Of a stretch of 64,000 bases of DNA, positions 6,093-64,000 are shown piece after piece. A model generated the notes under the pieces. That model saw only the letters and a list, made by a program, of their open reading frames with translations. It made no database searches and was not told where the DNA came from. This DNA is from an uncultured Chloroflexia bacterium (lineage in GTDB: Bacteria; Chloroflexota; Anaerolineae; CG2-30-64-16): contig CAWEMM010000002.1 in the NCBI GenBank assembly GCA_963810095.1, positions 224,001 to 288,000 of the forward strand. Direction: 5' to 3'. The position numbers were made by a program, and so were the translations under genes. Each line of letters begins with the position of its first letter. Positions within the stretch are counted from its first letter, which is position 1.

Positions 6093-6104
6093 TTAATACC
6101 CTGC

Positions 6105-46043: not shown

Positions 46044-47987
46044 TTAGGGTTTCGCGACGGTGATCGTCGTACCGTTGCTGTCGCCGTCGGGATCATGGTT
46101 CGCGCCGGCCTGGTAGGCCGAGCCGCTCAGGTTGATGCCCGACACGCTGAACGCGACGGTGGTCGTTCGCTTCGCAAGCGTTCCGGTCGAGACCGCGCAG
46201 CGTCCGGTTAAATCGGTCGTGCAGGTGGTCGTCCCGCTCGCGCCCGACCAACTGCCGCTCACCCTGGCCCCGGAAACCGGCACGTGGCTTCCGCCGTGCA
46301 CCTCGATGCTCACTTTCGCCGTCCAACTGCTGCTGCCGGTCGTCGTGCTGCGATCGAGGTCGCCCGCGTGAACCGAGGGCGAGCCGGCCGGGGTGGTTGT
46401 CGGCGTCGCAGTACTTGCCGCTGTCGGCGTAGCCGTGCGGGTGGCCGTGGGCGTCGCTGTCGGCATGGCGGTTGCCGTGGCCGTAGGCGTCGTCAATGCT
46501 GCGGTAGCCGTGGCGGTAGGCACCGGCGTGTCGGTAGGCGCGGCGGTTGCAGTCGCGGTCGGAGCAGGCGTATCGGTCGGGAGGGTCGCGGGCGTCGGGC
46601 CGGGCGTGGGCGTGGCGCCCGCCTGCAGCCACCGGTACGCCGCCAGGGCGTCGATGCGCCCCGCGCCAAAGGTGTTGTCGGGCCCTGCCGCGCCGAGATC
46701 GACTGCGGACTGGATCAGCGCGGCGGCCTGCTGGTCGGCGGTGAGGTCGGGGTAGGCGCTGAGCAGCAGCGCCAGCACGCCGGCCGCATGGGGGGCCGAC
46801 AGCGACGTGCCACTGGCCGGCGTGTAATTTCCCAGCAGGTCCGCGGTGCGCACGTTCACGCCGGGCGCGACGACTTCGGGGTAGGTCACCGACGCTTCGC
46901 CGCACGCGGACGGTCCCCGGCTGCTCGCGGCGTAGATCAAGTCGCTGTTGTTGGCGGCGCCAACCGCAAACGCCTCCGGGTAGTTGGCCGGGCTCACGCT
47001 GGTGGAGCCGTAAGGCCCGTAGTTCCCCGCTGCAAACACGGGCAGGATGCCCGCCGCTCGCAGCGCTCGCAAATCGGGTTGGAAGGCCAGGTTGCAGCCG
47101 ACGCTCCCGTAAGCCCACGAGTTGTTCACGATGTCCGCGCCATCCGCAGTCGTGGGGTCGTCGTCCGGGTCGAGCACCCACTGGAGCGCCAGGTGGATGG
47201 CGGTGGCGGTGGCCGAACCGGCGTCGTTGAAGATTTTGGCGGCAATCCACTGCGCGTCGGGCGCGACGCCGATTGACGTGCCGCCCGCGTCACCCCCGAC
47301 TAGGATGCCCATCGTCCACGTGCCATGCCCGGTCTTGTCGTACGGCGTCGTGGCGTGCTGGCCGTACGGGTCGTACCAACTACTACTGCCGCCGCGCCAG
47401 CGACCGCTGAGGTCGGGGTGGGTTGCGTCCACACCGCTGTCCAGCGCCGCGACGACGATCCCCTGCCCGCGCACGTTCGCGTCCCACAGGCTCGGCGCGT
47501 GGATGAGGTTCACGTTGGCTTCGGGTGGCGCGTAAGCCGGCGCGGCCGCCGGCACGACGTCGATCGCGTCGGGGGTGATGGATACGACTTCGGGCCGCTC
47601 GGCCAACTGCCGGATGATGCCCGGTCTAGCCGTCACCGAGAGCCCGTTCTGCAGCCAGAATGGCACGACCGTCGACACTGAACCGTCGGCTTGGCGCTGG
47701 GTGAGCCACGCGCGCAGCGGCGCCTGGCTTCGCTCGGCGGCCTGGCGCAGTCGTTCGACGACTACCAACTGCCGGTCTTTGCGGCTTAAGCCGGGCGCCG
47801 GCGCGAGATCGGTCTGCTGCACCAGCGTCACGATCGCCGTGACCTGCGCGTCCGGCGCAGCAGCATCGAGCGCCGCCTGCAGCGCCGGGTCGATTTTAGC
47901 CCCGTCTGCCCGGCCGGCGCCTGCAGAGCCGGGCAGCAGAAGCACGAGAACGAGCAACACCGCGCTTACGCCTGCTTTTTTCATCAT
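46044..47987 (-). CDS. secreted S8 (subtilisin-like) serine peptidase with I9 propeptide, PT-rich linker and C-terminal Ig-like domain
   Basis: 'LDSGVD', 'HGTWTMG', 'FAAGN', 'GTSLSAPH'; PT/AT repeats. Confidence 0.95.
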   Translation of the reverse strand: MMKKAGVSAVLLVLVLLLPGSAGAGRADGAKIDPALQAALDAAAPDAQVTAIVTLVQQTDLAPAPGLSRKDRQLVVVERLRQAAERSQAPLRAWLTQRQADGSVSTVVPFWLQNGLSVTARPGIIRQLAERPEVVSITPDAIDVVPAAAPAYAPPEANVNLIHAPSLWDANVRGQGIVVAALDSGVDATHPDLSGRWRGGSSSWYDPYGQHATTPYDKTGHGTWTMGILVGGDAGGTSIGVAPDAQWIAAKIFNDAGSATATAIHLALQWVLDPDDDPTTADGADIVNNSWAYGSVGCNLAFQPDLRALRAAGILPVFAAGNYGPYGSTSVSPANYPEAFAVGAANNSDLIYAASSRGPSACGEASVTYPEVVAPGVNVRTADLLGNYTPASGTSLSAPHAAGVLALLLSAYPDLTADQQAAALIQSAVDLGAAGPDNTFGAGRIDALAAYRWLQAGATPTPGPTPATLPTDTPAPTATATAAPTDTPVPTATATAALTTPTATATAMPTATPTATRTATPTAASTATPTTTPAGSPSVHAGDLDRSTTTGSSSWTAKVSIEVHGGSHVPVSGARVSGSWSGASGTTTCTTDLTGRCAVSTGTLAKRTTTVAFSVSGINLSGSAYQAGANHDPDGDSNGTTITVAKP

Positions 47988-48544: not shown

Positions 48545-49387
48545 TCATTGCACCGTCGTGGGCGGCAGGCGCAGCTCGCCGAACTGCAGGGCGACAGGCA
48601 TACCCGCGCGCACCACCTGGTCGGGGTTCGGATAGAACGCGTAGTAGGTGGCGCCGTTCTTCAGCTTACGCGCGTGCATGTGCTGGTTGGGTGGTGTGAG
48701 CACCGTCTTGCCGCCATCGACGATGATAACCGGCATCATCTCGTGGTTCGAGAGCAACGCCTCGGCCTTCGCTTTGTCCACCACCCGGAGTCGGATGTCG
48801 ACGATGCTGTCCATCATCGAAGGGGCCACCTGCAGCACCTCGACCCCGTACTGCTCGGCAAACGCCTGGACCGAAATGGGCTTGGCATTTTCCAGGGCCT
48901 CATGCGCCGGCTCGTGCCCTCCGCCCGCGGGCGCAAGCGCACCCCAGCCAAAGCCGGCCAGGCCAAAAGCAAGGACAAACCCGAGGGCCGCGCCCATCAC
49001 CAGCCGGGGATCCCAGCGCTTGGCCGGCCCGACCGACCGCCAGGGCTGGGCAGCCGCGAACAGAGCGACGAAGGCGCCCTCCAGCAGCATCGCCAGAAGT
49101 CCAACCGGGTACAGCCACTCTTCCACTTCCATGCCGGGGAGGCCCACCGTCCGCGTCACCACGTAGCCGGCGAGTGCGCCGGCCGCGACCCAGAAGCCCA
49201 GCACCCAGCCCCAGGTCGCGCCCCGGCGGATGCCGACCGCAGCCGCCAGGGCGGCGACGAAGTTGGCGACGAACAGGTAACCCAGGAGCGGCATTTCCTC
49301 GTACTCTGAGGGCGCCAGGAACAGGTGCAGTACCCCGATCAGTATGAGCAGGCCAATGCCCAGCCATTTCAGCTTTCGTGAGGTCAT
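48545..49387 (-). CDS. membrane protein (about 5 TM) fused to an extracellular His/Met-containing domain
   Basis: 'GVLHL' in TM1; C-terminal domain 'YGVEV..VA...IVDIRLRVVDKAKAEALL' shared with the neighbouring gene. Confidence 0.75.
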   Translation of the reverse strand: MTSRKLKWLGIGLLILIGVLHLFLAPSEYEEMPLLGYLFVANFVAALAAAVGIRRGATWGWVLGFWVAAGALAGYVVTRTVGLPGMEVEEWLYPVGLLAMLLEGAFVALFAAAQPWRSVGPAKRWDPRLVMGAALGFVLAFGLAGFGWGALAPAGGGHEPAHEALENAKPISVQAFAEQYGVEVLQVAPSMMDSIVDIRLRVVDKAKAEALLSNHEMMPVIIVDGGKTVLTPPNQHMHARKLKNGATYYAFYPNPDQVVRAGMPVALQFGELRLPPTTVQ

Positions 49388-49420: not shown

Positions 49421-49876
49421 TCATTGGACCGGCAGCGGCTGCAAGCTGATGTCTCCGAAGGTCACGGCCACTTTCGTGCCGCGCTTAACGGCGTTCCCGC
49501 TGTTGGGGAACAGGCGGAAAAGGAGCTTCCCGTCCTCCGGCTTCTCCTGCGGCAAACCATCGTCCGGCGCGCGCAGCACCACTGCGGACCCGCTAACCCC
49601 CAGCGCGGGGGATAGGTTGCCCAGCAGCGCTGCGGCCTTCGCCGCGTCCGTCACTGTCAGGCGCAGGTCGACCATGCCGCCGGCCGCAGTGAGGGCCAGC
49701 AGGTTGACCCGCAGACCGTATTGCGCCTCCAACTGCTCGGCCGTGAGGGTCGTGCGAGCGGCGGGAGGTGGTGCGGCCGAAGCCGCGTTCGCCGCGCAAC
49801 CCCCCATCAGGGCTGCAACCAGCAGCAGGGATATGATGACGCCCGCCAGCCCGATCCGGCGCCTGTTTTCAACCAC
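49421..49876 (-). CDS. hypothetical lipoprotein, paralogous to the C-terminal domain of 48545-49387
   Basis: lipobox 'MGGC'; 'YGLRV..LA...MVDLRLTVTDAAKAAALL...FPNSG..VKRG..V.V.FG'. Confidence 0.75.
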   Translation of the reverse strand: MVENRRRIGLAGVIISLLLVAALMGGCAANAASAAPPPAARTTLTAEQLEAQYGLRVNLLALTAAGGMVDLRLTVTDAAKAAALLGNLSPALGVSGSAVVLRAPDDGLPQEKPEDGKLLFRLFPNSGNAVKRGTKVAVTFGDISLQPLPVQ

Positions 49877-50015: not shown

Positions 50016-52976
50016 TCAGGGTCCGGCGAGCGGCGACACAGAACGCTTCGACGTGAAAGCGTCGAAGTACATCAGCGTGTTCGTGCCGGTGTTCGTGACC
50101 GAGCCCATGCGTACGGCCCCAACCGCCCCCGTGCTGGTCATGGTCAGCGTCTGCGCCTGCACGCCGTTCACGTAGAGTCGCAGCGTGCCCGGGTTGGGCC
50201 CCCCGCTGCCCACGGCCTGCCACACGACTTCGAGGAAGTTGTTGCTTGTGCCGCCGAGCAGGTTCGTCCAGGTCGAGTTCGTGTTGCTCGTCCCAGCCTG
50301 GATCTGCACCTGCGGCGTCGTCCCCGATAGCCGGTAGCGCACCCGGAACAGCGTGGTGCCGAAGGTGTTCGAGGTCGCGGCGCTCAGGATGTCCTTGCCG
50401 GTCGAGCTGTTGCCGTTCGGCCGGAAGTACATGCGGGCGTCGTAGGTGGCCGATGCCGGATTCGTCGCCGTGCCCCAGTTGTACTGCACGTAATTCGTGT
50501 TGTTGCCCTGGGATTGCAAGCCGTAGGCGCCCACCAGCTTCGCCGTCGTCGTGACGTTCAAGCGGCTCGTGTTGGTGGTGGAGCGGCTGGACCAGGCGCT
50601 GAAGTTGCCGGATTCGAAGCCGTCCGAGAAGATGACGTCGGGCGGCGAGACCGCTAGGGTCGCGGTCCGGATGCCGCTGCTGCCGGTGCTCCAGTTGCCG
50701 GCCGCGTCGCGAATGCGTGCGCTGACGGTGTAGGAGCCCAACGCCAGCGAGCCGACCGGAATGGTGGCCGTCGAGCCGGTGAATTGGGTGCCGCCACCAG
50801 GCGCCGGATTCGTGCTCGTCGGCGGGTTGATCCAGTACTCGCCGCCGGCCACACCCGCACCGCCCGCATTGTCGGCGGCGCCGTTAATCGTGAGGGTGAC
50901 GTTCGTCGCACCCGCGGTCGGATTGGGCGACAGGCTGATGCCCGTGAAGGTCGGCGCGGTCTTGTCGACCAGCAGGACCGTGGTTGCCGTCGGGCCCCAG
51001 TTGCCGGCTGCGTCGCGCCCGTGCACATAGACCGTGTGGTTACCCTGGCTTAGCGCGTTGATCGTCGTCAGCGGCACGTCGGCCGTCGCGGCTTCGGTCT
51101 GGCTGTTGAAGCTGCCGTCGCTGGCCGCGAACGGGAAGCCGGCGCCGTCTGCTCCCAGTGTGTCGATGAACCCTTCGCCGCCTGCGATCGCCGAGGCGGT
51201 GTCGGCCAGGGTCGCGGTGACCCGGACTGCCGGCGTGCTAGAGTTGATGCCGAGCGTCCCGTTGTTCGGGTTCGGCGCCGCCGCAACGCCGCTCGTCGCA
51301 GGCCCGGTCTTGTCGACGATCAAGCTGATCGTCGCGGGCGCACCCACGTTGCCCAGCGCGTCCGTGCTTTGAACCGAAACCGTGTGCGTGCCCGCGCTCA
51401 GCGTCGTGGCGTCGATCGTGGCCGTCAGGCTGGCCACCGGCGCCGAGCTCGTGTTGAGCGTCATGGCGCTGGCGGCGCCGCCGTCAATCTTGTATTGCGC
51501 CGAGGCGATGCTGCTGCCGCCGCTGGCGCTGTCGTCCGCGGTGCCACTCAGCGTCGCGCTGCCCGTGCCGTTGCTCGGGTTCGGCGCCAGCGTCAAACCC
51601 TTCGTCGCCGGTCCCGTCTTGTCGAGGTTCAGCGTCGCAAAGTTGAACGGCCCCCAGTTTCCTGCCGCATCCTGGCCGCGGATGTAGATCGTGTGGTTGC
51701 CGGAAGCCAGCCCGGCGAGGGTGGCGGGGCTCAGACTTGCGGTCACGGCTTCGGCTGCCGAATTGAAGGCTCCGTCGCCGGCCACCATGGCCATCGCCGC
51801 GGCGCCCTGACTGTCGATCCGGTACTCGGCCGCAGTGACGTTCGAGCCGCCGCTGGCTGCGTCGCTTACCGACGCGCTGACGGTGACCGCAATCGAGCCG
51901 TTGGTCGGGTTCGGTGCGAGGCCCGTCGAGGTCGTCGCCGGGCCGGTCGTGTCATTTCCCGGTGGGGTCGCCGTGCCGACGGTCAGGAAGGCGAGCATGC
52001 CGCCGAAGCCGGCCGCACTACTGTTCCTGAGCATCAGATTGGCATCATAGAGCGCAAACTTGCTACCCGCCGTCGCCCCCCCAGGGACGGTCACGATGGC
52101 GTCGGCTGTCTGGCCGGGCCCCAACGTCTCGGCCACCAGCCCGCGGCTCATGGAGAACGGGCTGCCGTCCGTCGCCACCAGCACCTGGTGCAGACCCAGC
52201 ACGCTCATGGAGTGCGGCATGAGGCCCGCGTTGACGAATCGCAGCAGCACCTTGTTGCCCGCCGACGTGGCGATCGCTTCAGTCTGCGGGAACGCCTTCC
52301 CGTTGACCAGGAAGTACTTTGGTGCGAAGTTGCGGATGTCAAACGTGGTCGGGTTCGCATTCAGCGCCGGATCGATCTCGCCCAGCACGACTTGTGCTTC
52401 GTCCGTATAAGCCGTTGACGGGTCCGCGTAAGCCTGGCCCGCACTGGCAGGTCGCACGACGAGGGTCCCGTACAGACCCATCGCCACCTGCCGCGGCTCG
52501 CCGGCCGACAAACCCGCCTCATAGAGGAACGTGCCGGGATTGCTCGCAGTGAAGGAGTAGGTCTTCGACCCGCCCGGCGCCACGCCTGCGGTGTCGGGGA
52601 CCATTTGCTGTCCCTTGAAGAGCAAGCTGGACGGCTCGGCCAAGTTGTTCGTGAGATTGACGGTCACCACGTCACCCTGGTTGACGATGAGCACCGGGCC
52701 CGGCACGCTCGCCGCACTGCCCGCGCTGGAGGCATAGGCCCACACGTTGACGGTTGCCCCGCCCGGCAGAGTCAGCGTGCCCGGCTTCGACCACAAGTTG
52801 CAGGTGGCCGCCCCGCCGGCTGACGTGCAGGGTGTCGCCGGCAGGCCCGCGGCCTCTGAGACGGCGGCCGGCACGGCCGCTAACAACGCGGTTGCCAGCA
52901 ACGCGGCCACCAACAGCAGGAGGCGCGCCGGGAGGCCAGCTCCCATCCCATGCTTGGTACTTGCTAATGCATGCAT
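50016..52976 (-). CDS. MCO paralogue C: two cupredoxin-like domains without copper motifs, Ig-like repeats and a C-terminal beta domain
   Basis: 'PGPVLIVNQGD', 'PGTFLYEAG', 'MGLYGTLVVRP', 'LVNGKAFP'; HxH motifs replaced by 'SLLFKG' and 'LYEAG'; repeated 'DxTGPAT..PNP' Ig-like units; 'DVIFSDGFESG'. Confidence 0.85.
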   Translation of the reverse strand: MHALASTKHGMGAGLPARLLLLVAALLATALLAAVPAAVSEAAGLPATPCTSAGGAATCNLWSKPGTLTLPGGATVNVWAYASSAGSAASVPGPVLIVNQGDVVTVNLTNNLAEPSSLLFKGQQMVPDTAGVAPGGSKTYSFTASNPGTFLYEAGLSAGEPRQVAMGLYGTLVVRPASAGQAYADPSTAYTDEAQVVLGEIDPALNANPTTFDIRNFAPKYFLVNGKAFPQTEAIATSAGNKVLLRFVNAGLMPHSMSVLGLHQVLVATDGSPFSMSRGLVAETLGPGQTADAIVTVPGGATAGSKFALYDANLMLRNSSAAGFGGMLAFLTVGTATPPGNDTTGPATTSTGLAPNPTNGSIAVTVSASVSDAASGGSNVTAAEYRIDSQGAAAMAMVAGDGAFNSAAEAVTASLSPATLAGLASGNHTIYIRGQDAAGNWGPFNFATLNLDKTGPATKGLTLAPNPSNGTGSATLSGTADDSASGGSSIASAQYKIDGGAASAMTLNTSSAPVASLTATIDATTLSAGTHTVSVQSTDALGNVGAPATISLIVDKTGPATSGVAAAPNPNNGTLGINSSTPAVRVTATLADTASAIAGGEGFIDTLGADGAGFPFAASDGSFNSQTEAATADVPLTTINALSQGNHTVYVHGRDAAGNWGPTATTVLLVDKTAPTFTGISLSPNPTAGATNVTLTINGAADNAGGAGVAGGEYWINPPTSTNPAPGGGTQFTGSTATIPVGSLALGSYTVSARIRDAAGNWSTGSSGIRTATLAVSPPDVIFSDGFESGNFSAWSSRSTTNTSRLNVTTTAKLVGAYGLQSQGNNTNYVQYNWGTATNPASATYDARMYFRPNGNSSTGKDILSAATSNTFGTTLFRVRYRLSGTTPQVQIQAGTSNTNSTWTNLLGGTSNNFLEVVWQAVGSGGPNPGTLRLYVNGVQAQTLTMTSTGAVGAVRMGSVTNTGTNTLMYFDAFTSKRSVSPLAGP

Positions 52977-53009
52977 GTCATTCTCCTTGTTTCCTGCTTG
53001 TCAGGCCGC

Positions 53010-54314
53010 TCAGGGGCAATTGTTGGGCGCGGGCGGGTCGATACGCAGGTATGTGATCGGCCCGGTCATCGTCACGCCCCATGATGTGATCTGATACAGC
53101 GCATGGTTGTGCGCGATGATGTAGTATTCGCCGCACTGGTTCAACGTCGATTGGCCGGGCGGCATGGGCCCCGTCTTTCCGAGATACGGACTGCCCCCGT
53201 AGAACATGCCATAGACCATGTTGGCCATGTTGGGCACCGTCACCGGAACCGGATTGGTCGCCTCGTCGTAACGCTCCGCGTCATACCACTTGAAGACGAC
53301 GTCCCAGGTCTGGCCCGGCCCGATGTTGATGGCAAACTTCTCGAACGACATATCCTGGCCGGTCGGGCCGGCCAGCGGCTGCCCGTCGCGGCCGATGACC
53401 AGGCCGTTGTTGCCGTGCGGGTGGAACGGGTATTCCTCCGTGCCGACGTTCAGGTAGCGGATGGCGCCGGGCAGGGGATGCGTCGTCGCGTCAAAACCCT
53501 TGACGCGTGCCAGCGCTCCGTACGGCTGGGCCGGCAGCCAGTCGGCGTAGTTGTCCGCAATGCTATCGGGGAAGCCGCGGCCGTTGATGAGCCAGTAGCG
53601 AGGCTTGTAATTGTTGAGGTTGAAGCTCTTGCCCTGCTCCGCGGCCTGGTGCTGGTACGGGTCGATTTCGGACAGGAGAACGAGGAACTCCTCGCCCGGC
53701 GTAAACTGGCTGTCCGCCCGGTTGTACATGAAGTTCGCGCCCATGCTGGGCCGCACGATCAACGCGCCGAACAGCCCCATGCCCACCTGCTTGCGAGGGT
53801 TGGTGCCGCTCTCGTAGATGTACGTGCCGGGATTGGCGGCGACAAAGCTATACGTGATGCTCCCGCCGTTCTTGGCCGCCACGTTGGTCAGCGAGGTCAG
53901 CGCGCCGCCCGCATCAAACTGCGGCTGGGCGGCCGCGCCGTTGGCCTGCACGTTCTCCTGGCCAGGGAACATGATCGAAGCATCTTCCGAAAGGTTGTTT
54001 TGCAACGTCACCGTCACCGTATCGCCCTGGTTGACGCAGAGCACCGGTCCGGGGTGTTGGAAGGGCTTGCCGCCCTCCGAGTAACCCCACATGAACATGG
54101 TATTGCCGTCGGGCAGGCTGATATAGCCGGTCTGTGCGCTGAGCGTGAAGGTCGGATTCGGGCTCGCGCCTGTCGTGCAGGCGATCCCGACGGTCGGACC
54201 GAGCGCCTGGGCCTGCACGGGCTGCGTCTGCGCCAACGGCGCAATGGACGCCAGCACGGCCACCACCAGCAAGACCGAGCCTCTTCCCATCCATCTGATC
54301 AAAGAGTTTCGCAT
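53010..54314 (-). CDS. MCO paralogue B: two-domain MCO with His pairs only in domain 2
   Basis: Sec-type signal; domain 1 'SIMFPG' and 'YIYESG' (no His); domain 2 'YPFHPHG' and 'IAHNHAL'. Confidence 0.88.
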   Translation of the reverse strand: MRNSLIRWMGRGSVLLVVAVLASIAPLAQTQPVQAQALGPTVGIACTTGASPNPTFTLSAQTGYISLPDGNTMFMWGYSEGGKPFQHPGPVLCVNQGDTVTVTLQNNLSEDASIMFPGQENVQANGAAAQPQFDAGGALTSLTNVAAKNGGSITYSFVAANPGTYIYESGTNPRKQVGMGLFGALIVRPSMGANFMYNRADSQFTPGEEFLVLLSEIDPYQHQAAEQGKSFNLNNYKPRYWLINGRGFPDSIADNYADWLPAQPYGALARVKGFDATTHPLPGAIRYLNVGTEEYPFHPHGNNGLVIGRDGQPLAGPTGQDMSFEKFAINIGPGQTWDVVFKWYDAERYDEATNPVPVTVPNMANMVYGMFYGGSPYLGKTGPMPPGQSTLNQCGEYYIIAHNHALYQITSWGVTMTGPITYLRIDPPAPNNCP

Positions 54315-54349
54315 CGTGTCGCTCCTTATGCCATGACCCGCACGCCCGG

Positions 54350-55714
54350 TTACGTGTTGGGAATCGACTGCTGCGCCAGCGCGCCGGACGGATATACCCG
54401 CACCTCTGTGCGCTGCCCGCCAAACCCGCCGTCGGCAAGGTTGTTCGAGCGGGTGAGCTGGCGGTTGTAGAGCACGTAGGTATCGAAGGCGCCCGGCCCG
54501 CGGTAGGGCGGCGCATCGAAAATCACGTCGAAGCTCTCACCCGCGCCCATCGTGATAGTGTCGGTCAGGTACTGCGTGTTCGTGCCGTCGCGGCCGCGCA
54601 TCAGCGTGGCGTCCCGCCCCACGACCCGCATCTTGATCCCCGGCAGCGTCATGCTGGCTTCCTTGAAGCCCAGGTTGGCAAACCGGAGCAGCACCCGCTC
54701 GCCGGCATTGCAGTTGACCAGCGCCGAGAGCGGCTGATATTTCAACCGGTCGTACCCGGCCGGCGGAATGAGGTCGCCGTCGGCATCGCGCACGGGGTTG
54801 AAAGGATCGATCGAGCCGTTGGGTGCCAGCGTGTCGGGATAGACTCGACCGTTCAGCATCGCGAAGTCGGCCCGGTAGTCGCTCCATTCGGGCAACTGGA
54901 TGTGTGCGTCGGCCCAGTGCGCCTCGGCCCACACCTCGCTCAGGAACATCGCGAACTCGCGATCAAACCCGGTCGACCCGTCCCCGTCGTTGTACGCATA
55001 CTTGCCGCTCGGATAGAACGCCGTGTTCCCGTCCTGCAGCGGCCGCACGAATACCAGGCCGGTCATGCCCATGTGCACATGCTCCACGTCCTCGACGTGG
55101 CAGTGATACATGTACGTCCCCGGGTCGCGCGGCCGGTAGACATAGGTGAACTCGGTGCCCGCGGGCACCGACACGGAGCCCGTCGGTTCGCCATCGAAGA
55201 ACGGGATGACGTTGCGGAAACCATGCCAGTGCAGCGTATGCGCATCGAACAGGTCGGGGCGCTGCGCCAACCCCAGGTTGGTGATCTTGACCCGAAAGTC
55301 CTTCGGCGCGGCCGGATCGAACTGCTTGGCCCAGAAGATCGGCGCGTTGTGCTGCGCCTTGTTCTTCTGGTTCGACCGCTGCTGATCGGTCAGCCCGGTG
55401 ATGTTCCGGAAGCCGAAGATATAGGTCGTGAACGGCGGGGGCGCATACGGGTCGGGATGAACGACTTTGCCGTCCCACGTGATTTGCGGCGTCGGCGGCA
55501 GGTAAATCCAGCCGTCGGTGCCGCCGAAGAACAAGTCAGGCGGCGCATCCTGCGCCTGGGCCACGCCTTCGGGCAGCAGCACCCGGCGCAGCGCCGGCGA
55601 GGCGAGCGCCCGCGGGGCCAGCGCCGCACCAGCAGTCAGCGCGGCCGCGCCCCCTGCGAGCTTCAGGAAGTCCCGGCGGCCGAGACGACGAGAGAACGAT
55701 TCCCTGCTCATCAA
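54350..55714 (-). CDS. MCO paralogue A: Tat-exported two-domain MCO with type-1 site and His pairs only in domain 1
   Basis: Tat motif 'GRRDFLK'; 'HTLHWHG' and 'YHCHVEDVEHVHMGM'; domain 2 'SMTLPG' and 'LYNRQ' (no His). Confidence 0.9.
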   Translation of the reverse strand: MMSRESFSRRLGRRDFLKLAGGAAALTAGAALAPRALASPALRRVLLPEGVAQAQDAPPDLFFGGTDGWIYLPPTPQITWDGKVVHPDPYAPPPFTTYIFGFRNITGLTDQQRSNQKNKAQHNAPIFWAKQFDPAAPKDFRVKITNLGLAQRPDLFDAHTLHWHGFRNVIPFFDGEPTGSVSVPAGTEFTYVYRPRDPGTYMYHCHVEDVEHVHMGMTGLVFVRPLQDGNTAFYPSGKYAYNDGDGSTGFDREFAMFLSEVWAEAHWADAHIQLPEWSDYRADFAMLNGRVYPDTLAPNGSIDPFNPVRDADGDLIPPAGYDRLKYQPLSALVNCNAGERVLLRFANLGFKEASMTLPGIKMRVVGRDATLMRGRDGTNTQYLTDTITMGAGESFDVIFDAPPYRGPGAFDTYVLYNRQLTRSNNLADGGFGGQRTEVRVYPSGALAQQSIPNT

Positions 55715-55787: not shown

Positions 55788-58700
55788 TCAGGGCAGCAGC
55801 GTGTCGCCGCGGAAGTCGTCGACCCGTGCATTCGCCGGCAGCTGGATGCCGATCCGGCCGGTGCCAGTGAAGCCGGTGCCTGCGGCCCGGCCGACAAACG
55901 CGCCGTTCTTGAAGACGGCCACGCTACCATCGGCGTAGGCGGCTGCAGCCAGCGTATCGCCTGTCACGAAGGCCGCGGTCATCGTTTGGCCACGTGTCGT
56001 GTAGCTCAGCCCTCCGTTCGTTGTCGTCGCAACAGTGAGCTGACCGCCGCCGGTGGTCTGGTACTGCACCCGGATGAAGTTGGTCGGCAGCGTCGCGCTG
56101 CTGCCAGTCACCTTGAGCACCAGGCCAGAGCCGCCGGCCGGCGCGTTGGCGAACGTGAACGCGACCGCTTGCCCTGCGCCAAACCCGGTGGTCGGCACGT
56201 TCCAGAACGCGGCGCCGAGGACGCTGGCGAACGCCTGGTTGCTGTTCACGCGGATCGCCGCCGAGCCGAACGCGGTCACCTGGCTCCAGTTGTTGCCCAG
56301 CGTGTTCGCGTTGGTCCGGTTGAAGTTGTCACGGACCGTCAGCGCCGGCAGCGTGGGCGTGGTCAGCGCCAACGTGTCGGTGGCGCTGTTGTTCGCCGTG
56401 TTCGGGTCGATCGCGTTCGCCGGCAGCGTCACGGTCGCAGTGTTCACCACTGAGCCGCTGGCGTTATAGGCCAGGGTGGCGTTGGCGGTGAAGGTAACCG
56501 AGCCGCCCGCGGGCAGGTTCACGCTGCTGTTGATCGAAGCCGAGCCGCTAGCCGCGCTGCACGCAGCGCCCCCGGCGGCCGTGCAGGTCCAGCTCACGCC
56601 CGTCACCGCCGCGGGGAAGCCGTCCGTGACCGTCGCCCCGTTGATCGCGTTCGGCCCCGCGTTGGCTGCCCGGATGGTGTAGATCACCGTGTCGCCCGGC
56701 TGCGCGGTCGAGGGGCTGTGCGTCTTGGTGATGCTCAGGTCGCCCGAAGCGAGTTGCGGCAACTCGTCCGCACCCGAGTCGTAGCCGGCGCCGGCGGGCC
56801 GCAAGTCGTTGTCGAAGTCAAACGCCGGCGCGTTCACCCCCGTCTTCGAGGCCGCGCCCGCGTCCTTCGCCGGTGACGTGTTGGTCAGGTGGTAGTTGCC
56901 CAGCAGGGTCGGCGGCAGGTCGGCCGCAACCATGATCGGGGCCACGAAGTTCGGGTTGTTGCGCCAGACGTTGAACGCGACCGAGAGGTCGAAAGTGGTC
57001 TGCACGGCCGGGTCGACGATCTGGTTCGTGGGCGACGCGATCGTGCCTGTGGTGGTCTGCAGCAGCGAATTGGTCGGCGACACCTGGCCGAAGCCATCCG
57101 CGACGCCCAGATCCCAGTTGTAGATGTCGCCCGCGCCGCCAATGCCTAGCCCGGTCACCGAGCCCCCGGCACGCGTGCCGGCCCGGTTGTCCCAGAAGAT
57201 GTTGTTGAACAGCAGCGGGTTGCTGAAGGCGGGCGAGCCCGCAGGCAGGGTGGCCTGCAACTGGTCGCTGTTCAGCGAGGTGGACAGGCCCGCAGGCGCC
57301 GGTTGTCCGTTGCTGGTGACCGCGGTCGCCGTGGTCAGGTTCTTCATGAACGTGTTGTTGTAGACTCGCACCTGGGGTGCATCGTTGATGCCGATGCCGC
57401 CGCCTTCGTGGGTGGAGACGTTGTTCACGATCATGTTGTTGTACACGTTCATCGGGAAGTTGCCGGCCATCAGGAAGCGCAGGCCGCCGCCGTCGTCGTT
57501 GCCCAGGTTCGCCTGGATCAGGTTGTTGTAGATGTCCACCGGGCCAGAGCCGGGCGACAGGGTGGCCGGATTCGCGGGGAGTTGACCCGCGATCATGATC
57601 CCGCCGCCTTCGTCGTAGGACTGGTTGAAGTAGATCCGGTTGTGGTGGATCTTGCCGCTTGGGCTGTAGCCATAGACGCTCAGCGCGCCGCCGTACTCGG
57701 CCGAGAAGTTGCCGCACAGGTCGTTGTTCGCGACCTCGTAGTTGTCGGCCCCCGCAAAGAGCCCGATACCGCCGGCCAGGTTCGTGCCGCCGTTGTGGAT
57801 GATCCGGTTGTTGGCGATGCGGACGTTCTCGTTGTGCTGGTTTGTATCCGGCGCAGGCAGGTCAGGCGTGCCGAGGCGGATGGTGCCATAGGCGCCGCCG
57901 TTGTTCTCGATCACGTTGTTCGTGATCTGCAGGTACCTGACGTATGCGTTGGCAAAGATCGCACCGCCCTGGGTCTCCACCGCCGGAGGCTGACCGGTTG
58001 CGCCGCCGCCAATCTGGTTGATGTTGTTCGGGAAGCCCATCTGATCGCCGCCGCGGATGTCAAACCCGTCGATGGAGGCCCTGAACGAGTTGCCGAACTG
58101 GTTGACGTTCGCCAGCAGATAGATCCCTGCGCCTTCGTACACGTTCTGGTTGCCGGCCCACGACAGCGTGGCGATCTTCGCACGCCACGCGTCGGCCAAT
58201 GCCGTGTCGCCGCCGAAGGCGCCCGCGTCGATGATCGAGCCGGGGACGAAGGTCGTGCCCTGGAAGCCGCCGGGACCCACGCCCTGCAGCTTGATTGGGT
58301 TCGAGACGATCAGGTTCTCGTAGTACGCGCCGCGTGGGTTATTGCGCGGATTCGTCAGGTCCGGCTGGCCGGGATAGACGACCACCAGGCCGCCCCGGTA
58401 GTTGCCGGGCGCCGCGTCATCGGCTGCACTCTTGTCGATCGCGGCCTGGATCGTGGCGAAGGCCTTGCCCGGCCCCACCTCGTAGACCACCGGGTTGTAG
58501 GTGCCGGCGATGATGTGCATGGTCAAGCCGTTGACGGTGCTCTGGCCGTTGTTGGCCGTGACGGCCAGTTGATGCGGGCCGCCGAAGTTGCCGGGAATGC
58601 TCGACGGCACCCGGACGACGATCTGCGTGTCCGACCAACTGGTGACGGACAGCGCCGTGTTTCCGTCCAGCGTCACCTTGCTCTTGCTGCCCTGGGCTCC

Positions 58701-61700
58701 AAAGCCCGTGCCCGTGATCGTGAACGAAGTGTTCGGGCTCACGTTGGGCTTGGAGACCCGGAGCAACTGCGGTGTGGCTGCATCCAGCGTGCAGCTGACC
58801 TGGTTCACCTGGCCGCCGGGAAGCTGGACGGTGACGCCGACCTGGGTCGGCGCGAGGTCGGCCGGCACCAACAGCCCCGGAATCGTCTCGAATTCGGCTG
58901 CGATCGTCCGGAACTGCGGCTTGTAGTTCGGGTTGAGCACGCCCGGCGTGCCCGGGTCGTTGCCTACAAAGCGGTACAGGTTGGCGCACACGCCCGAGGG
59001 CGTCGGGCAACTGATGCGGTTGCTCGACGGCAAGAGCACGTCCCAGAGACCGTTGAAGTCGGATTCGACCGTCTGCACCAGCCGGTTGGTCCAATCATAG
59101 ATGCCTACCGGCGCGAACGGCACGCCCGCCTTCTCGCCGAAGAGCAGCGAGCGGGGATCGCCCGAGAAGTTCAGGTCGTCGACGACAAGGCCCCAGATGC
59201 GTGTGGGCAGCGGGACGTCGGTGAAGACGTTGAAGGTCGGGACGATCGACTTGCCGTTGTTGAGTTGCACCAGCTTCGTGTCGCAGTACGGCCGGGCTTG
59301 GCCCTCGTACGGCGACGCGCCGATGTCGAGGAACGTGGGGTTGTCCACGGGCGTCGAGGCCGGCACGGTCACACCGAGGGGCACCGTATTGCCGTCGCCT
59401 GCCTGCGGGGCATAGCCATCCGTGCCAAAGTTCAGCACGTCGACCGTGTGCAGGGGGCCTGCGCATGCGGGCGGCGGCACCTGCGGGACGAACTGGTCGC
59501 CGTTGGCGATGTTGATGTCCTCTTCGCGCGTGAACTGGTAGGTGGGCTGACCCCGGACGTCCGCGGGCACCTCGACATGGACGAGGTAATCACGGCCGCC
59601 GGGCAGCGGATCGAAGGTCCCACCCACGCACACCGGGTTCTCTGGGTCAGTCGCGTCGAGCGTGCCGTTGAAGCAGCCGTCGCCGAAGCCGTAGTTCCCG
59701 TCGACCGCCGCGCCGAAATTGGCATCCGGCGTGCCCTGGTCGGTCGCGTACGGCCCGAACTGCACGCCCATCAGCGGCCCCTCCAGACAGTCGGTGCTCG
59801 CCGCGGTCACCTTTTGGTCGTTCGGATACGCCAGCGGGTTGCCGTCCACGTCGCGCGCGATGCAGTTGTCGCTGGGCCGCTGCCAAGATTCGGTCACGTA
59901 GGTGTTCAGCAGCTTGCCGCGGGAATAGGAGCCGTCCGGCTCCAACTGGTACCAGCCGTCGGCGTCGCAGGGCTTGCTGCCGTCGACGGGGCAGTCGACC
60001 GGCTCATACAGGTCGACGGTGAGCCCCGATACCCCGGGTTGCCAGTCTTCGACGGCCGCATAGCGCGGGTCCAGCTCGTTGCGGGTGGTGTCGTAGCTGA
60101 CCGTGCCGACGATGCCGCCGTTGCGCGGGTCGATCCCGTTCGTGCCGGCCGCATCATAGGCGTGCAGGCCCCAATCGAGGCGCCCGCTCAGACCGATAAT
60201 CGGCAGCACGCTCACGTCGACGCCCGATCCGAGCACCGTGGTGGGCGCGGCCTGATTGTCGGCCTGGTAGGTGATGCCGGTCGTGTAGTAGAGGTCGCTG
60301 TACGCTTCTTCGACCAGCCACTGCGTCATCGGGTAGGCGTTCTCCATGACGTAGTAGCCGTTGGCGTCGGTCGTCACGGCCGTCGCGCCGCGATCCATCA
60401 GCGAGTTTTCGCGCTTGCGCATGGTCAGCGTGAAGTTCGGAATGCCCGGCTCGCCGGGGTCTTTGATGCCGTTGCGGTTCGTGTCGTTGAAGACGTAACC
60501 GTCGATCTGGGTCCACCAGCCGGTCAGCGGCAGGATGCCCATGTCGACCAGTTCGCCGTTGCGCACGGTGACGTTGAGCAGGTCGAAGATGTAATCCTGC
60601 GGCTCGTCCCACCATGAGAGGGTGTAATTACCGTCCGGCACGTTCTTGATGTCGAACGCGCCGTTGGCGTCGCCCTGGCCGACATATACGACGGAGTCGC
60701 CGTTGGTCAGGTCCGTAAGTGCGACCCACGGCTCGGGAATCGGCTTGTCGATTTTCGCGCCCGTCATGCCACCCCAGATGGTGCCGGGCAGGCCGAGCCC
60801 GCCCTTGGCCGGGACGTAGACCTTGGCCGCGTCGATCACGCCCTTGATCTCGCCGCTGCCGCCGGCCAGCGAATTGCCCGGATTAACAAAACCAAAGAAG
60901 GTCGCCGGGAACGGCTCGCCCGCGACGACAAATTCCGTATCGTAGCCGGTCGCGCCTTCCATGACCCAGGCGTCCCAGTCGTGATTGCCTTCGAGCGTCG
61001 TCGTCTGAATCCACGTCTGACCGTCAGGCGGGGTCACAGATAAGGCATAGCGGTTGGGGCCCATGTGCGGGATTGCCAGGTCCCCGTTCGCGTCGCTGAG
61101 GCACTTCCCGCCGGTGCCCGGAAGCGGGATAGGGAGTTGGTCGGCGTCCAGCGCGCTCGTCGGGATCTCGAACGTCGCGGGATCCTCGCCCTGGTATTTC
61201 GTGCACAGCGGGTTGCCGTAGATGTCAGTGGTGACTTCGCCGAGGTAATCGGCGATGTGCCCCTGGAAGCCGGCCAGCCCGTGCTCGGCCGGAGCGTCAG
61301 GCGCGCTGTTCACGGGCGATGAGTCCTCGAACACCCAGGTGCGGATGGTCGCATCGGGCACCGGCCATGGCTGGAGCTCGACGGTGAGTGGGCCGGCCGT
61401 CGGCATCGTGAAGTGCGCGCCGTCCAACTTATAGCCATCGGCCAGTACCGAGATCAGGTAGCGGCCGTCGGGCAGCGAGAGACCGCTCGCGAAGTCGTCC
61501 TGGTCGCCCTGCGTGACGATGGGGCTCGAGCCCGGGACGCCGGCGATCGAGGTCCACTTGCAGGTGCCCGGGTAGCCCGGATCGTTGGGCGTACATGCGC
61601 CCGGTAGCGCACCCGTTGTCGGGTCAGGCCGCTGGTCGGTCGTGCCGGTATTGTCCAAGTTGATGATGTACTTGTACGTGGTAATCTTGTCACCCTGGTT

Positions 61701-61937
61701 CACATGGCCGCCCGGGTGCCGGGGTTCGGTTCTGGCACTTACCACGTCGAGCTGCAGGATACTCGCAGCAGCGAGCAGGCTGCGGGCTTCTTTCTTCACC
61801 GGTGCCTCGGCCGCCGCAGGCTGCGCCAGCGCCGGCAGTGAGGTCGTGATCAGAATCGCCAGCAACAGGAGATGCCAGCTCACGCGAAATGACGTCCGGT
61901 TTCTTCCCATCGAAGGACCTCCTTGGTTGTACGCCAC
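55788..61937 (-). CDS. giant secreted multidomain protein (SdrD-B/Cna-B-like, IPT/TIG, right-handed beta-helix, DUF11)
   Basis: signal peptide; 'GYVFNDTNRNGIKDPGEPGI' (SdrD-B); 'TITGTGFG...SWSDTQIVV' (IPT); 'FATIQAAID' plus Asn/Gly beta-helix; 'DLSITKT..PGDTVIYTIRAANAGP' (DUF11); start codon uncertain (61937 or 61910). Confidence 0.88.
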   Translation of the reverse strand: MAYNQGGPSMGRNRTSFRVSWHLLLLAILITTSLPALAQPAAAEAPVKKEARSLLAAASILQLDVVSARTEPRHPGGHVNQGDKITTYKYIINLDNTGTTDQRPDPTTGALPGACTPNDPGYPGTCKWTSIAGVPGSSPIVTQGDQDDFASGLSLPDGRYLISVLADGYKLDGAHFTMPTAGPLTVELQPWPVPDATIRTWVFEDSSPVNSAPDAPAEHGLAGFQGHIADYLGEVTTDIYGNPLCTKYQGEDPATFEIPTSALDADQLPIPLPGTGGKCLSDANGDLAIPHMGPNRYALSVTPPDGQTWIQTTTLEGNHDWDAWVMEGATGYDTEFVVAGEPFPATFFGFVNPGNSLAGGSGEIKGVIDAAKVYVPAKGGLGLPGTIWGGMTGAKIDKPIPEPWVALTDLTNGDSVVYVGQGDANGAFDIKNVPDGNYTLSWWDEPQDYIFDLLNVTVRNGELVDMGILPLTGWWTQIDGYVFNDTNRNGIKDPGEPGIPNFTLTMRKRENSLMDRGATAVTTDANGYYVMENAYPMTQWLVEEAYSDLYYTTGITYQADNQAAPTTVLGSGVDVSVLPIIGLSGRLDWGLHAYDAAGTNGIDPRNGGIVGTVSYDTTRNELDPRYAAVEDWQPGVSGLTVDLYEPVDCPVDGSKPCDADGWYQLEPDGSYSRGKLLNTYVTESWQRPSDNCIARDVDGNPLAYPNDQKVTAASTDCLEGPLMGVQFGPYATDQGTPDANFGAAVDGNYGFGDGCFNGTLDATDPENPVCVGGTFDPLPGGRDYLVHVEVPADVRGQPTYQFTREEDINIANGDQFVPQVPPPACAGPLHTVDVLNFGTDGYAPQAGDGNTVPLGVTVPASTPVDNPTFLDIGASPYEGQARPYCDTKLVQLNNGKSIVPTFNVFTDVPLPTRIWGLVVDDLNFSGDPRSLLFGEKAGVPFAPVGIYDWTNRLVQTVESDFNGLWDVLLPSSNRISCPTPSGVCANLYRFVGNDPGTPGVLNPNYKPQFRTIAAEFETIPGLLVPADLAPTQVGVTVQLPGGQVNQVSCTLDAATPQLLRVSKPNVSPNTSFTITGTGFGAQGSKSKVTLDGNTALSVTSWSDTQIVVRVPSSIPGNFGGPHQLAVTANNGQSTVNGLTMHIIAGTYNPVVYEVGPGKAFATIQAAIDKSAADDAAPGNYRGGLVVVYPGQPDLTNPRNNPRGAYYENLIVSNPIKLQGVGPGGFQGTTFVPGSIIDAGAFGGDTALADAWRAKIATLSWAGNQNVYEGAGIYLLANVNQFGNSFRASIDGFDIRGGDQMGFPNNINQIGGGATGQPPAVETQGGAIFANAYVRYLQITNNVIENNGGAYGTIRLGTPDLPAPDTNQHNENVRIANNRIIHNGGTNLAGGIGLFAGADNYEVANNDLCGNFSAEYGGALSVYGYSPSGKIHHNRIYFNQSYDEGGGIMIAGQLPANPATLSPGSGPVDIYNNLIQANLGNDDGGGLRFLMAGNFPMNVYNNMIVNNVSTHEGGGIGINDAPQVRVYNNTFMKNLTTATAVTSNGQPAPAGLSTSLNSDQLQATLPAGSPAFSNPLLFNNIFWDNRAGTRAGGSVTGLGIGGAGDIYNWDLGVADGFGQVSPTNSLLQTTTGTIASPTNQIVDPAVQTTFDLSVAFNVWRNNPNFVAPIMVAADLPPTLLGNYHLTNTSPAKDAGAASKTGVNAPAFDFDNDLRPAGAGYDSGADELPQLASGDLSITKTHSPSTAQPGDTVIYTIRAANAGPNAINGATVTDGFPAAVTGVSWTCTAAGGAACSAASGSASINSSVNLPAGGSVTFTANATLAYNASGSVVNTATVTLPANAIDPNTANNSATDTLALTTPTLPALTVRDNFNRTNANTLGNNWSQVTAFGSAAIRVNSNQAFASVLGAAFWNVPTTGFGAGQAVAFTFANAPAGGSGLVLKVTGSSATLPTNFIRVQYQTTGGGQLTVATTTNGGLSYTTRGQTMTAAFVTGDTLAAAAYADGSVAVFKNGAFVGRAAGTGFTGTGRIGIQLPANARVDDFRGDTLLP

Positions 61938-62676: not shown

Positions 62677-63330
62677 ATGCCCATCCAGGTTCTGATCGTC
62701 GACGACCACTCGGTCGTCCGCCAGGGTTTGCGCATCTTTCTTGACATGGACCCCAATATCCGCATCGTCGGCGAAGCGACGAGTGGCACGAGCGCAGTCC
62801 AGATGGCGCGGGACTTGCGGCCCGATGTGGTGCTGATGGACTTATTGATGCCGGGCGTAGACGGCATTACTGCCACACGCGTGATCCGCCGCGAACTGCC
62901 CGATGTCGAAGTCATCGCGCTGACCAGCGTACTGAAAAACGAGCTCGTCGTGCAAGCCGTCCAGGCCGGCGCAATCGGCTACCTGCTCAAAGACACCGAT
63001 GCCCCCAAGCTGCGCCAGGCCATCCACGCAGCGGCGGCGGGCGAGGTGCAGTTATCCCCTGAGGTTGCCGCTATGCTCCTCAAGGAGGTGCGGGCGCCGC
63101 ACGAGATGGAGCACCTGACCGACCGCGAGATGGACGTGCTGCGGCTGGTGGCCCGCGGTCTGGCCAACAAGGAGATCGGCCGCGAGCTTTTCATCAGTGA
63201 GACGACGGTGAAAAGCCACGTGAAGAGCATCATGGACAAACTCGAGCTCCCCAGCCGCATTCACCTGGCGCTTTACGCCGTGCGCATGGGCCTGGCGTCG
63301 CTCGACCCGAAGGCGCCCTTGCTGAAATGA
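62677..63330 (+). CDS. NarL/LuxR-family response regulator
   Basis: 'LIVDDH', 'VLMDLLMP', 'GYLLK', 'LTDREMDVL...NKEIG..LFISETTVKSHV'. Confidence 0.95.
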   Translation: MPIQVLIVDDHSVVRQGLRIFLDMDPNIRIVGEATSGTSAVQMARDLRPDVVLMDLLMPGVDGITATRVIRRELPDVEVIALTSVLKNELVVQAVQAGAIGYLLKDTDAPKLRQAIHAAAAGEVQLSPEVAAMLLKEVRAPHEMEHLTDREMDVLRLVARGLANKEIGRELFISETTVKSHVKSIMDKLELPSRIHLALYAVRMGLASLDPKAPLLK

Positions 63331-64000
63331 GCAGTTCCGACCCCGGGCGCGAGCCTGCGGCCAGGCGCCTGGACACGCGTTCGGCCGTGTCGATCTCGGT
63401 GACCTTCACCCTGCTCGTGGGCGTCCTCGCCCTCCTCGTGAACCTGGTGTTGGTCAGGCTGGAGCCCCCGGGCGCATACGCGCTCAGATACGATCTGACC
63501 GCGGACATTATGCTGGCAGCCATTGCCGGCTTGGTCCTGTACGACCTGCTCCGCCGGGAAGCGTTGGCGAAGCGCCGTGCGGCCGCCCTGCTCCAGCGTG
63601 AGCAGGCGGCGCAACAGGAGATCGCGCAGGTACGGGCCAATGAAGATGAGCGGCGCCGGCTCATCCAGATCATGGACACGATCCCCGAAGGTGTCTGCAT
63701 CATCAGCGAAGACTTCGACATGGACTATGTGAACCCCGTGCTCGAGCGAACGTTTGGCGCGCCGGGGGGCCGGAAGTGCTACGACTACCTCAACGGCTTC
63801 GCCGAGCCGTGTGCCCAGTGCCCCAATGACGACGTCTTCGCGGGCAGCACCGTGCGCCGTGAGTGGGTGGATCAGCGGAGCGGGCGGACGTACGAGCTGG
63901 TCGACACGCCCATGCCTGCGCTCGCGGGCAAGAGGATGAAGCTGGAGCTGCTCACCGACGTCACCGAGGACGTCGAGGCCCGTAAGCGGACTGAGGAACT
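63327..64000 (+). CDS. membrane sensor with PAS domain, probably a histidine kinase (3' truncated by window)
   Basis: ATG overlaps the regulator stop; two TM, coiled coil, PAS 'IMDTIPEGVCII...YVNP...KCYDYLNGFAEPCAQCP...DVTE'; frame open to the window end. Confidence 0.75.
   Translation, partial: MSSSDPGREPAARRLDTRSAVSISVTFTLLVGVLALLVNLVLVRLEPPGAYALRYDLTADIMLAAIAGLVLYDLLRREALAKRRAAALLQREQAAQQEIAQVRANEDERRRLIQIMDTIPEGVCIISEDFDMDYVNPVLERTFGAPGGRKCYDYLNGFAEPCAQCPNDDVFAGSTVRREWVDQRSGRTYELVDTPMPALAGKRMKLELLTDVTEDVEARKRTEE

Follow-up and report, generated by a model that had tools for sequence, protein, structure and literature searches.

A predicted multicopper oxidase with copper ligands split over two adjacent gene products in an uncultured Chloroflexota bacterium

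Do three adjacent genes, each recognisable as a multicopper oxidase gene, encode three enzymes or the parts of one? The question is raised by a locus of an uncultured Chloroflexia bacterium (GenBank assembly GCA_963810095.1, contig CAWEMM010000002.1), analysed here within a stretch of 64,000 nucleotides, contig positions 224,001 to 288,000, which is called the window and to which all coordinates refer. The genes, named A, B and C, are three separate open reading frames (ORFs) with gaps of 33-35 bp between them. A sequence-only reading of the stretch had proposed a heterotrimeric oxidase in which the copper ligands are divided between A and B, with C as a structural third subunit and stalk. Here we report an analysis of ligands, conservation, predicted structure and gene neighbourhood, according to which a composite copper site of A and B is quite probable; the full arrangement, with a split-site A/B oxidase, C in the ring and a surface assembly built with the giant neighbouring protein G, is one that we favour modestly. 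The features concerned are as follows.

54350..55714, minus strand: A, 454 amino acids (aa), two-cupredoxin-domain subunit, predicted to be exported by twin-arginine translocation (Tat)
55661..55681, minus strand: Tat motif GRRDFLK of A, coordinates computed from residue numbers
55220..55240, minus strand: motif HTLHWHG of A, residues 159-165, with type 1 (T1) copper ligand H159 and the cluster pair H162/H164; invariant
55064..55105, minus strand: motif HCHVEDVEHVHMGM of A, residues 204-217, with cluster ligands H204/H206, T1 ligands C205 and H212, and axial M217
53010..54314, minus strand: B, 434 aa, two-cupredoxin-domain subunit with a Sec-type signal
53415..53423, minus strand: motif HPH of B, residues 298-300, domain 2, first cluster histidine pair
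53103..53111, minus strand: motif HNH of B, residues 402-404, domain 2, second cluster histidine pair
50016..52976, minus strand: C, whole ORF, 986 aa
51942..52976, minus strand: N-terminal module of C, residues 1-345, signal peptide and two ligand-free cupredoxin domains
50016..51941, minus strand: C-terminal part of C, residues 346-986, immunoglobulin (Ig)-like repeats (Big_13, Y_Y_Y-like) and a C-terminal domain of ~200 aa (Pfam, NCBIfam)

All three products scored above the gathering scores of PF07732 and/or PF07731 in Pfam, which identifies multicopper-oxidase cupredoxin domains in each, and beyond the first ~300 residues of C the Big_13/Y_Y_Y Ig-like repeats were detected. In profile alignments A matched B with a probability of 99.7 and 29% identity, and B matched C (hhalign) with a probability of 100 and 39% identity, C being nearer to B than A is. 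By these alignments A, B and residues 1-345 of C are paralogous two-cupredoxin-domain proteins, and the earlier description of three consecutive proteins of this kind agrees with both the minus-strand ORFs and the Pfam domains.

The copper ligands are distributed unevenly over the three paralogues. Domain 1 of A holds a T1 site (H159, C205, H212 and M217) together with four histidines of a trinuclear cluster (H162, H164, H204 and H206). Domain 1 of B is without any ligand and its domain 2 carries H298/H300 and H402/H404, and C has no copper ligand in either cupredoxin domain. The A residues H159, H162, H164, H204, C205, H206, H212 and M217 correspond in the profile alignments to A, M, P, E, S, G, Q and L in B, and to S, L, K, E, A, G, Q and L in C. 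Conversely, H298/H300 of B fall opposite T356/P358 of A and S258/L260 of C; H402/H404 coincide with gaps in both alignments and by eye face Y-N-R of A and Y-D-A of C. For multicopper oxidases four copper motifs are listed in PMC7036934, namely HxHG, HxH and HxxHxH plus HCHxxxHxxxxM. No single polypeptide here has all four, A containing only HxxHxH and HCH...H...M, B only the two HxH motifs and C none, and the full set is reached only by A and B together. Read in this way the ligands are complementary and non-redundant, and domain 1 of A with domain 2 of B would provide exactly one T1 site and eight cluster histidines.

The closest solved relatives of A are 3g5w_A (E 3.2e-10) and 2zwn_A (E 3.8e-9), both through alignments that span domain 1, and HCHVEDVEHVHMGM of A aligns to YHCHVNVNEHVTM of 3g5w. 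When domain 2 of B was compared with domain 2 of 2zwn, HPHGN was aligned with HSHGH and HNH with HDH. Against the NCBIfam models of named oxidases (CueO, CopA, laccase, ascorbate oxidase and nitrite reductase) A, B and C all stayed far under the cut-offs. Acidic residues by the T1 histidine were considered as a signature of metal oxidases and rejected, since 3g5w has the same N-E-H context and x5 spacing, which makes these a general trait of the type C two-domain oxidases.

Conservation was followed in three sets of loci. The near clade consists of the best 80 of 497 stretches that encode a relative of A (from 597 candidates on contigs taken at one genome per species), and these 80 loci belong to Chloroflexota, Actinomycetota and Anaeromyxobacteraceae. 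Cultured isolates of Cellulomonas, Xylanimonas, Nocardioides, Humibacillus and Terrabacter are among the matches. In a sample of the phylum an A orthologue was present in 10 of 301 genomes, the window genome included, at identities down to 45%. For the far clade, in which A is 35-40% identical, 80 stretches were retained out of 553 from metagenomes; its count for C comes from a clean set of 38 rows. Among 8000 scored candidates 3429 relatives of A had E values of 1e-3 or lower, the best 120 being 68-79% identical, and A is 64-79% identical across three phyla. In all, the predicted split-oxidase cluster beside G occurs in hundreds of soil and sediment bacteria.

All eight ligands of A were kept in 81/81 near-clade, 9/9 phylum-sample and 76/76 far-clade sequences. 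The four histidines of B were kept in 76-79 of 80, in 9/9 and in 51-53 of 53, respectively, and the near-clade misses are mostly gaps or broken rows. All 12 ligand residues of A and B are thus held while overall identity drops to 35-42%. No His or Cys column of C reached 90% in the near clade or in the 38 far-clade rows. At least 95% conservation was found in the near clade for 167 of 454 positions in A, 122 of 434 in B and 39 of 345 in C. Gene order was counted where the contig has room. B follows directly after A in 76/76 near-clade, 9/9 phylum-sample and 50/50 far-clade loci, and among these no case of A and B apart was seen; C follows B in 71/71, 8/8 and 30/30, or 109 loci in total. As judged from these alignments, the retention of the ligand split is far beyond chance. 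With the ligand mapping and the conservation in three clades, the earlier claims are upheld that B has no ligand in domain 1 and two pairs in domain 2, that C combines Ig-like repeats with a lack of copper motifs, that no paralogue is complete by itself, and that domain 1 of A and domain 2 of B supply the ligands for one complete site. The check that had been suggested for them, of gene order and ligand partition across genomes, gave the expected outcome.

Other residues are conserved as well. Domain 2 of A was said to have no copper histidines, which is correct for cluster ligands and has to be amended in that it does have the conserved histidines H266, which is invariant, and H271. H266 lies at the start of domain 2 (~54917-54919), is present in 81/81 near-clade and 76/76 far-clade rows, and does not belong to the canonical copper ligands. 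Its counterpart in B is the conserved H222 (67/80 and 51/53), and a C-like column at position 206 also aligns with it, though in the far clade alone (28/38). In C, H255 is present in 63 of 73 rows. Four cysteines of B (C46, C93, C394 and C433) are kept in 75-79 of 80 near-clade rows and are absent from the far clade; they probably form lineage-specific disulfides.

In eight near-clade loci (L011, L014, L016, L031, L038, L047, L063 and L080) about 0.6-2.1 kb of extra sequence lies between B and the oxidase module of C, which implies an N-terminal extension of C or an additional gene in those loci. In L038 and L047 this extra stretch includes a DUF11-like part that resembles residues 1730-1890 of G.

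A complex of A and B was predicted from residues 56-454 of A and 38-434 of B, for this one pair, with an alignment of 69 rows for each protein, in three runs and with three controls. The interface score ipSAE (interaction prediction score from aligned errors) was 0.88 in all three runs, and 0.00 for the best of the three controls. Partner pLDDT (predicted local distance difference test) was at least 93, and at least 97% of the contacts were common to the runs. In calibration, 58 of 80 solved complexes passed the ipSAE mark, as did 2 of 110 mismatched pairs; these counts apply here only approximately, since own alignments were used. The interface includes residues 162, 164 and 208-214 of A (in the HCHVEDVEHVHMGM motif, 208-211 and 213-214) and residues 298, 300 and 403-407 of B, such that H162/H164 of A and H298/H300/H404 of B fall within it in a model without copper. 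The pairing places the histidine face of A domain 1 on the histidine face of B domain 2, and not B domain 1 on A domain 2. The interface is also more conserved than the remainder of each protein (A, 0.913 vs 0.829; B, 0.868 vs 0.792). The sequence-only reading had proposed a model of A, B and C, compared with the homotrimers, as a check on the convergence of the eight histidines; for the A/B pair the predicted interface brings together the faces that bear the two sets. Homotrimeric two-domain oxidases are present in the PDB, and for this reason the pass may in part reproduce these solved structures.

Two-domain oxidases are described as trimers in which the cluster is coordinated by residues of two protomers, in PMC13151041 and PMC11761707, and the former places the T1 site of type C enzymes in the N-terminal domain. 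The nearest solved relatives of the present proteins by sequence and fold are of type C, namely the blue copper oxidase of Nitrosomonas europaea (3G5W) and mgLAC (2ZWN). A and B share with them the two-cupredoxin-domain protomer, the T1 site in the N-terminal domain (H159, C205, H212 and M217 of A), the HCH-x5-H-x4-M motif, in which a Glu precedes the T1 His, and the placement of the other four cluster histidines in domain 2 as two HxH pairs. In known type C enzymes the cluster sits at the protomer interface, whereas its A/B counterpart is a prediction. A type C polypeptide carries both half-sets of ligands and the homotrimer has three clusters, whereas here the halves are on two paralogues and the third has none, which allows at most one cluster per assembly. 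The type C trait that the same protomer supplies the domain 2 half is absent, as A has T356/P358 and Y-N-R at the respective places, and neither domain 1 of B nor C offers ligands. A and B are also ~100 residues longer than the known type C enzymes.

Multi-subunit oxidases are known in other forms. In PMC11761707, Nmar_1354 of Nitrosopumilus maritimus (9CCK) is described as a two-domain oxidase heterotrimer with clusters at the protomer interfaces. Its three chains derive from one gene and differ by a dangling extra cupredoxin domain, and every interface has a full cluster; unlike A and B, it is not ligand-partitioned. In Bacillus, the multicopper oxidase MnxG functions only as part of the Mnx complex with MnxE/MnxF, whose proteins are encoded by one operon. 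MnxE and MnxF are not known to be oxidase paralogues or to contribute cluster ligands, so that Mnx resembles A, B and C as an operon-encoded multi-protein oxidase and differs from them in subunit paralogy and ligand donation.

Six-domain multicopper oxidases include ceruloplasmin, hephaestin, the factor VIII-type fold and MnxG. The six cupredoxin domains of ceruloplasmin are arranged as a pseudo-threefold ring, one interface of which holds its only trinuclear cluster. The same arrangement would be obtained here should C close the ring. Several T1 sites are kept in ceruloplasmin, compared with one here. The ligand count would permit exactly one trinuclear cluster per A-B-C set. Six-domain multicopper oxidases are monomeric single chains according to PMC13151041. 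The present system consists of three genes and differs from them in this respect. In the literature that was searched, with most subscription journals outside the search, no heteromeric, split or ligand-partitioned two-domain oxidase was found. To our knowledge, characterised multicopper oxidases have all ligands in one chain or in a homotrimer of identical chains.

The mechanism that we propose is that of a single extracytoplasmic multicopper oxidase, in which A and B are obligate partners and the copper sites are divided between the two polypeptides. A would be exported in folded form via Tat and B via its Sec-type signal. Substrate electrons would enter at the T1 copper in domain 1 of A and pass over the Cys-His bridges of H204-C205-H206 to a trinuclear cluster made of four histidines of A (H162, H164, H204 and H206) and four of B (H298, H300, H402 and H404). 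There O2 would be reduced to water, at a cluster formed only where domain 1 of A meets domain 2 of B, giving one catalytic site per assembly as opposed to three in a homotrimeric two-domain oxidase. C would take the third position of a pseudo-threefold ring, so that the whole resembles a ceruloplasmin-like ring of six domains in split form, with one cluster, and its Ig-like repeats would link the enzyme to the cell surface, where they may together with G anchor or position it. The oxidase would belong, together with the giant protein G, to a conserved surface assembly of larger size, and its copper is probably supplied outside the cytoplasm by factors of the cluster, namely CopC-CopD in many genomes and D/E-type proteins. 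Binding between the partners, copper content, ring closure by C and the roles of G, D, E and S8 are what we infer from the data presented here. Phenolic or polymeric compounds and metal ions are candidate substrates, among which the evidence does not discriminate.

The export signals enter directly into this mechanism. The Tat signal of A matched TIGR01409 of NCBIfam with 16.8 bits against a cut-off of 16.7, and the twin-arginine motif S/T-RR-x-F-L is present in 78/78 A orthologues. The N-termini of B and C looked Sec-type in the examples inspected; a loose twin-arginine regular expression also matched 26/77 stretches upstream of B and 12/68 upstream of C, untranslated sequence included. With A exported by Tat and B and C by Sec-like signals, assembly and copper loading of the cluster would have to take place outside the cytoplasm.

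The three oxidase genes stand within a tight run on the minus strand, G-A-B-C-D-E-F-S8, with intergenic gaps of 33-139 bp in the ORF list of the window. Its other members are as follows.

55788..61937, minus strand: G, 2049 aa, secreted giant protein directly upstream of A
49421..49876, minus strand: D, 151 aa, small beta-sandwich domain and a single membrane helix at the N-terminus
48545..49387, minus strand: E, 280 aa, polytopic membrane protein with a C-terminal domain homologous to D that contains an HMH loop
48057..48464, minus strand: F, 135 aa, single cupredoxin, plastocyanin/CopI-like
46044..47987, minus strand: S8, 647 aa, secreted subtilase (Peptidase_S8, E 3.6e-49, Pfam), last conserved gene of the cluster

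G precedes A in 74/74 near-clade, 8/8 phylum-sample and 40/41 far-clade loci with room. In the same order, a D/E-type gene lies downstream in 63/64, 7/7 and 10/12 loci, and S8 in 62/64, 4/7 and 9/12. On this record the conserved unit is larger than A-B-C and comprises G, D/E-type membrane proteins, S8 and, often, CopC-CopD. The sequence-only reading had missed this larger unit, and with it the fusions of G with A that are described below.

G contains, by Pfam and NCBIfam, SdrD-B/CarboxypepD_reg-like beta-sandwich, TIG and DUF11 domains and a C-terminal domain. Right-handed beta-helix repeats of G were read from the repeat pattern and are putative, as Pfam matched only the choice-of-anchor Q/DUF11 end. 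The sole solved relative of G by sequence is the SdrD B-domain, and a comparison of its first 1100 residues with Atlas gave only beta-sandwich adhesin-type clusters. Over most of its length G is 47-77% identical in the near clade, across other phyla. In many near-clade loci, including L001, L003, L005, L007, L008 and L013, G has an extra internal copy of its C-terminal domain (~190 aa) at ~5700-6600 in locus coordinates. It sits between regions that match residues 1149 and 1145 of the window G, which is without the insertion. The C-terminal part of C is partly conserved in other loci, and a search for a C-terminal domain common to C, G and S8 of the window found no significant similarity.

In some lineages G and A are one protein. 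A search with A among 1.84 billion representatives gave 24 A-related representatives of at least 600 aa, of which 15 are fusions of G and A in a single ORF; all 24 keep HxxHxHG and HCH...H...M. The fusions of a distant clade, 2000-2800 aa long, are P0189, P0206, P0231, P0232, P0234, P0246, P0249, P0250 and P0265. Within the far clade the A frame is continuous and in frame with G in 6 of 51 testable loci. That G is fused to A in some lineages argues that the two act together physically.

Copper-handling genes are found within the cluster. In 37 of the 80 near-clade loci the D-type gene and S8 flank a CopC-CopD fusion gene (PF04234 and PF05425), for example in Xylanimonas of the Actinomycetota (L012:15112-16980, plus strand), and also in two Chloroflexota loci of the phylum sample (L089 and L091). 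The window has no CopC-CopD, and E and F occupy that place. Such genes fit the need for copper loading outside the cytoplasm. F matched Cupredoxin_1 and Copper-bind in Pfam and, partially, CopI in NCBIfam (38.8 bits, cut-off 280). It was found in only one of the 80 other loci (L002), which marks it as a lineage-specific accessory and not a conserved member of the cluster. D and E belong to no Pfam family. D was modelled with a pLDDT of 90.4, and none of its 918 matches in the PDB reaches E 1e-3. An alignment identified the C-terminal domain of E as homologous to D, with a His-rich loop in many homologues. In Atlas, D and E matched only hypothetical proteins.

Divergent from G are a NarL/LuxR-type response regulator (62677-63330, plus strand) and the start of a sensor-kinase-like gene (63327-63998, plus strand), both named by eye from their translations. 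They are possible candidate regulators of the cluster.

How far C belongs to the oxidase can now be weighed. Of the heterotrimer that had been proposed, the A/B composite site is strongly supported, and the place of C as third subunit and stalk drew no support from two tests. C most likely closes the pseudo-threefold ring, and a double role as ring subunit and stalk is plausible. Two independent natural fusions of B and C, P0271 (1177 aa) and P0272 (1167 aa), have the order B module, ~460-aa spacer, C-like module, and the C-like module of P0271 (pLDDT above 90) matches 3G5W with a template modelling (TM) score of 0.75 and a root-mean-square deviation (rmsd) of 2.7 Å over 302 columns. Several points weigh against the full arrangement, the length of that spacer being one. 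Mapped by homology from the A/B contacts, the surfaces at which B/C and C/A contacts would arise are less conserved than the remainder (B donor, 0.743 vs 0.814; C acceptor, 0.653 vs 0.705; C donor, 0.677 vs 0.702; A acceptor, 0.768 vs 0.851); positions of the buried core are part of the comparison, which makes this test a weak one, so that it gives no support without being a refutation. Superposition of P0271 on ceruloplasmin or factor VIII gave an rmsd of 28-30 Å with a low-confidence model. The alignment for this fold excluded B-only rows and was 7 rows deep in the B module, the whole model has a mean pLDDT of 64.6, falling under 50 in the spacer and at the end of the B module, and a predicted TM score of 0.45, and at this quality the superpositions are meaningless for ring geometry. 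Extracellular assembly and metallation, as required by export of A via Tat and of B and C by Sec-like signals, would be unusual for this enzyme class, and the A+B pass shows likeness to the neighbouring protomers of a homotrimer and not binding. A composite oxidase of A and B without C, as a heterodimer or an A-B-B or A-A-B ring, would leave C as a separate surface protein whose degenerate module serves for binding or as a scaffold. We regard this as unlikely, though worth serious consideration: the B/C and C/A faces are not conserved above background, C is the least constrained of the three by its count of positions conserved at 95% or more, and the model of the B/C fusion lacks ring packing. 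It has to contend, however, with the position of C after B at every one of the 109 loci, with the two-domain oxidase fold that C keeps as judged from the module of P0271, with the existence of B/C fusions, and with the trimeric state of solved two-domain oxidases (PMC13151041); moreover, a ring of A and B only would have odd interfaces with histidine half-sets. A single-chain relative that joins A, B and C was not present among 150 representatives or 75 longer B relatives. P0223 and P0238 were considered as fusions of A and B and rejected, as hhalign shows only one expected module in each. The extensions of P0274-P0278 were likewise rejected as hidden C modules, hhalign on P0274 showing only the expected module. 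These B-like proteins (772-798 aa) have a C-terminal extension of ~350 aa without detectable similarity to C, and in the two that were scanned, P0274 and P0276, it contains no Pfam family.

Two further explanations dispense with the composite site altogether. A and B might be separate homo-oligomers with non-canonical sites, A with T1 and a partial cluster and B with a mono- or binuclear histidine site, adjacent only through a shared pathway. Copper nitrite reductases, which are weaker matches of both A and B, show that the fold can host other interface sites. This explanation is nevertheless improbable, as the half-sets are the exact halves of a canonical eight-histidine cluster with no overlap or gap, each of the three clades keeps the two halves invariant together, B is without a T1 site to take electrons, and the predicted heteromeric interface juxtaposes both histidine sets. 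It is harder still to credit that A, B and C are catalytically dead relics with vestigial motifs, which serve a surface layer around G as structural or adhesive components only. C is clearly a pseudo-enzyme module, and G and the tail of C do resemble adhesin or S-layer parts. Vestigial ligands, however, would not stay invariant at 35-40% identity (A, 81/81 and 76/76; B, 51-53 of 53), the Tat motif of A is kept in every orthologue counted, and the cluster includes copper-handling genes.

We return to the A/B split-site oxidase with C as its third ring subunit. Its protomer fold and motif layout are those of the known type C enzymes; what appears to be new here, from the sequences compared, is the predicted ligand-partitioned A/B heteromer, the larger G-containing unit and the fusions of G with A and of B with C. 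A more far-reaching version, which we put forward tentatively and rate at a little short of even, would see in this locus an extant split six-domain oxidase, its asymmetric A-B-C ring, with one T1 copper and one trinuclear cluster, being a heteromeric stage between homotrimers and ceruloplasmin-type chains. This ring would form the catalytic head of an extracellular machine, so far unrecognised, that is built on G as a beta-helix protein of 2000 residues and loaded with copper outside the cell by its own delivery genes, spread by gene transfer in Chloroflexota, Actinomycetota and Myxococcota of soils and sediments, and acting on a substrate class new to multicopper oxidases, such as a G-bound polymer or mineral.

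In at least 497 species-level genomes and 553 metagenome stretches the listing of these genes goes no further than multicopper oxidase domain proteins, with the consequence that genome-based predictions of laccase activity or of manganese or iron oxidation arrive at three enzymes in place of at most one, or count none at all. The identity of A across three phyla, together with that of G in the near clade, suggests a strongly selected extracellular function. If the proposal is true, an O2-reducing cluster that needs two different gene products for its formation would amount to a new quaternary solution, and the locus would offer a testable model for the path from trimeric two-domain oxidases to asymmetric single-site enzymes such as ceruloplasmin.

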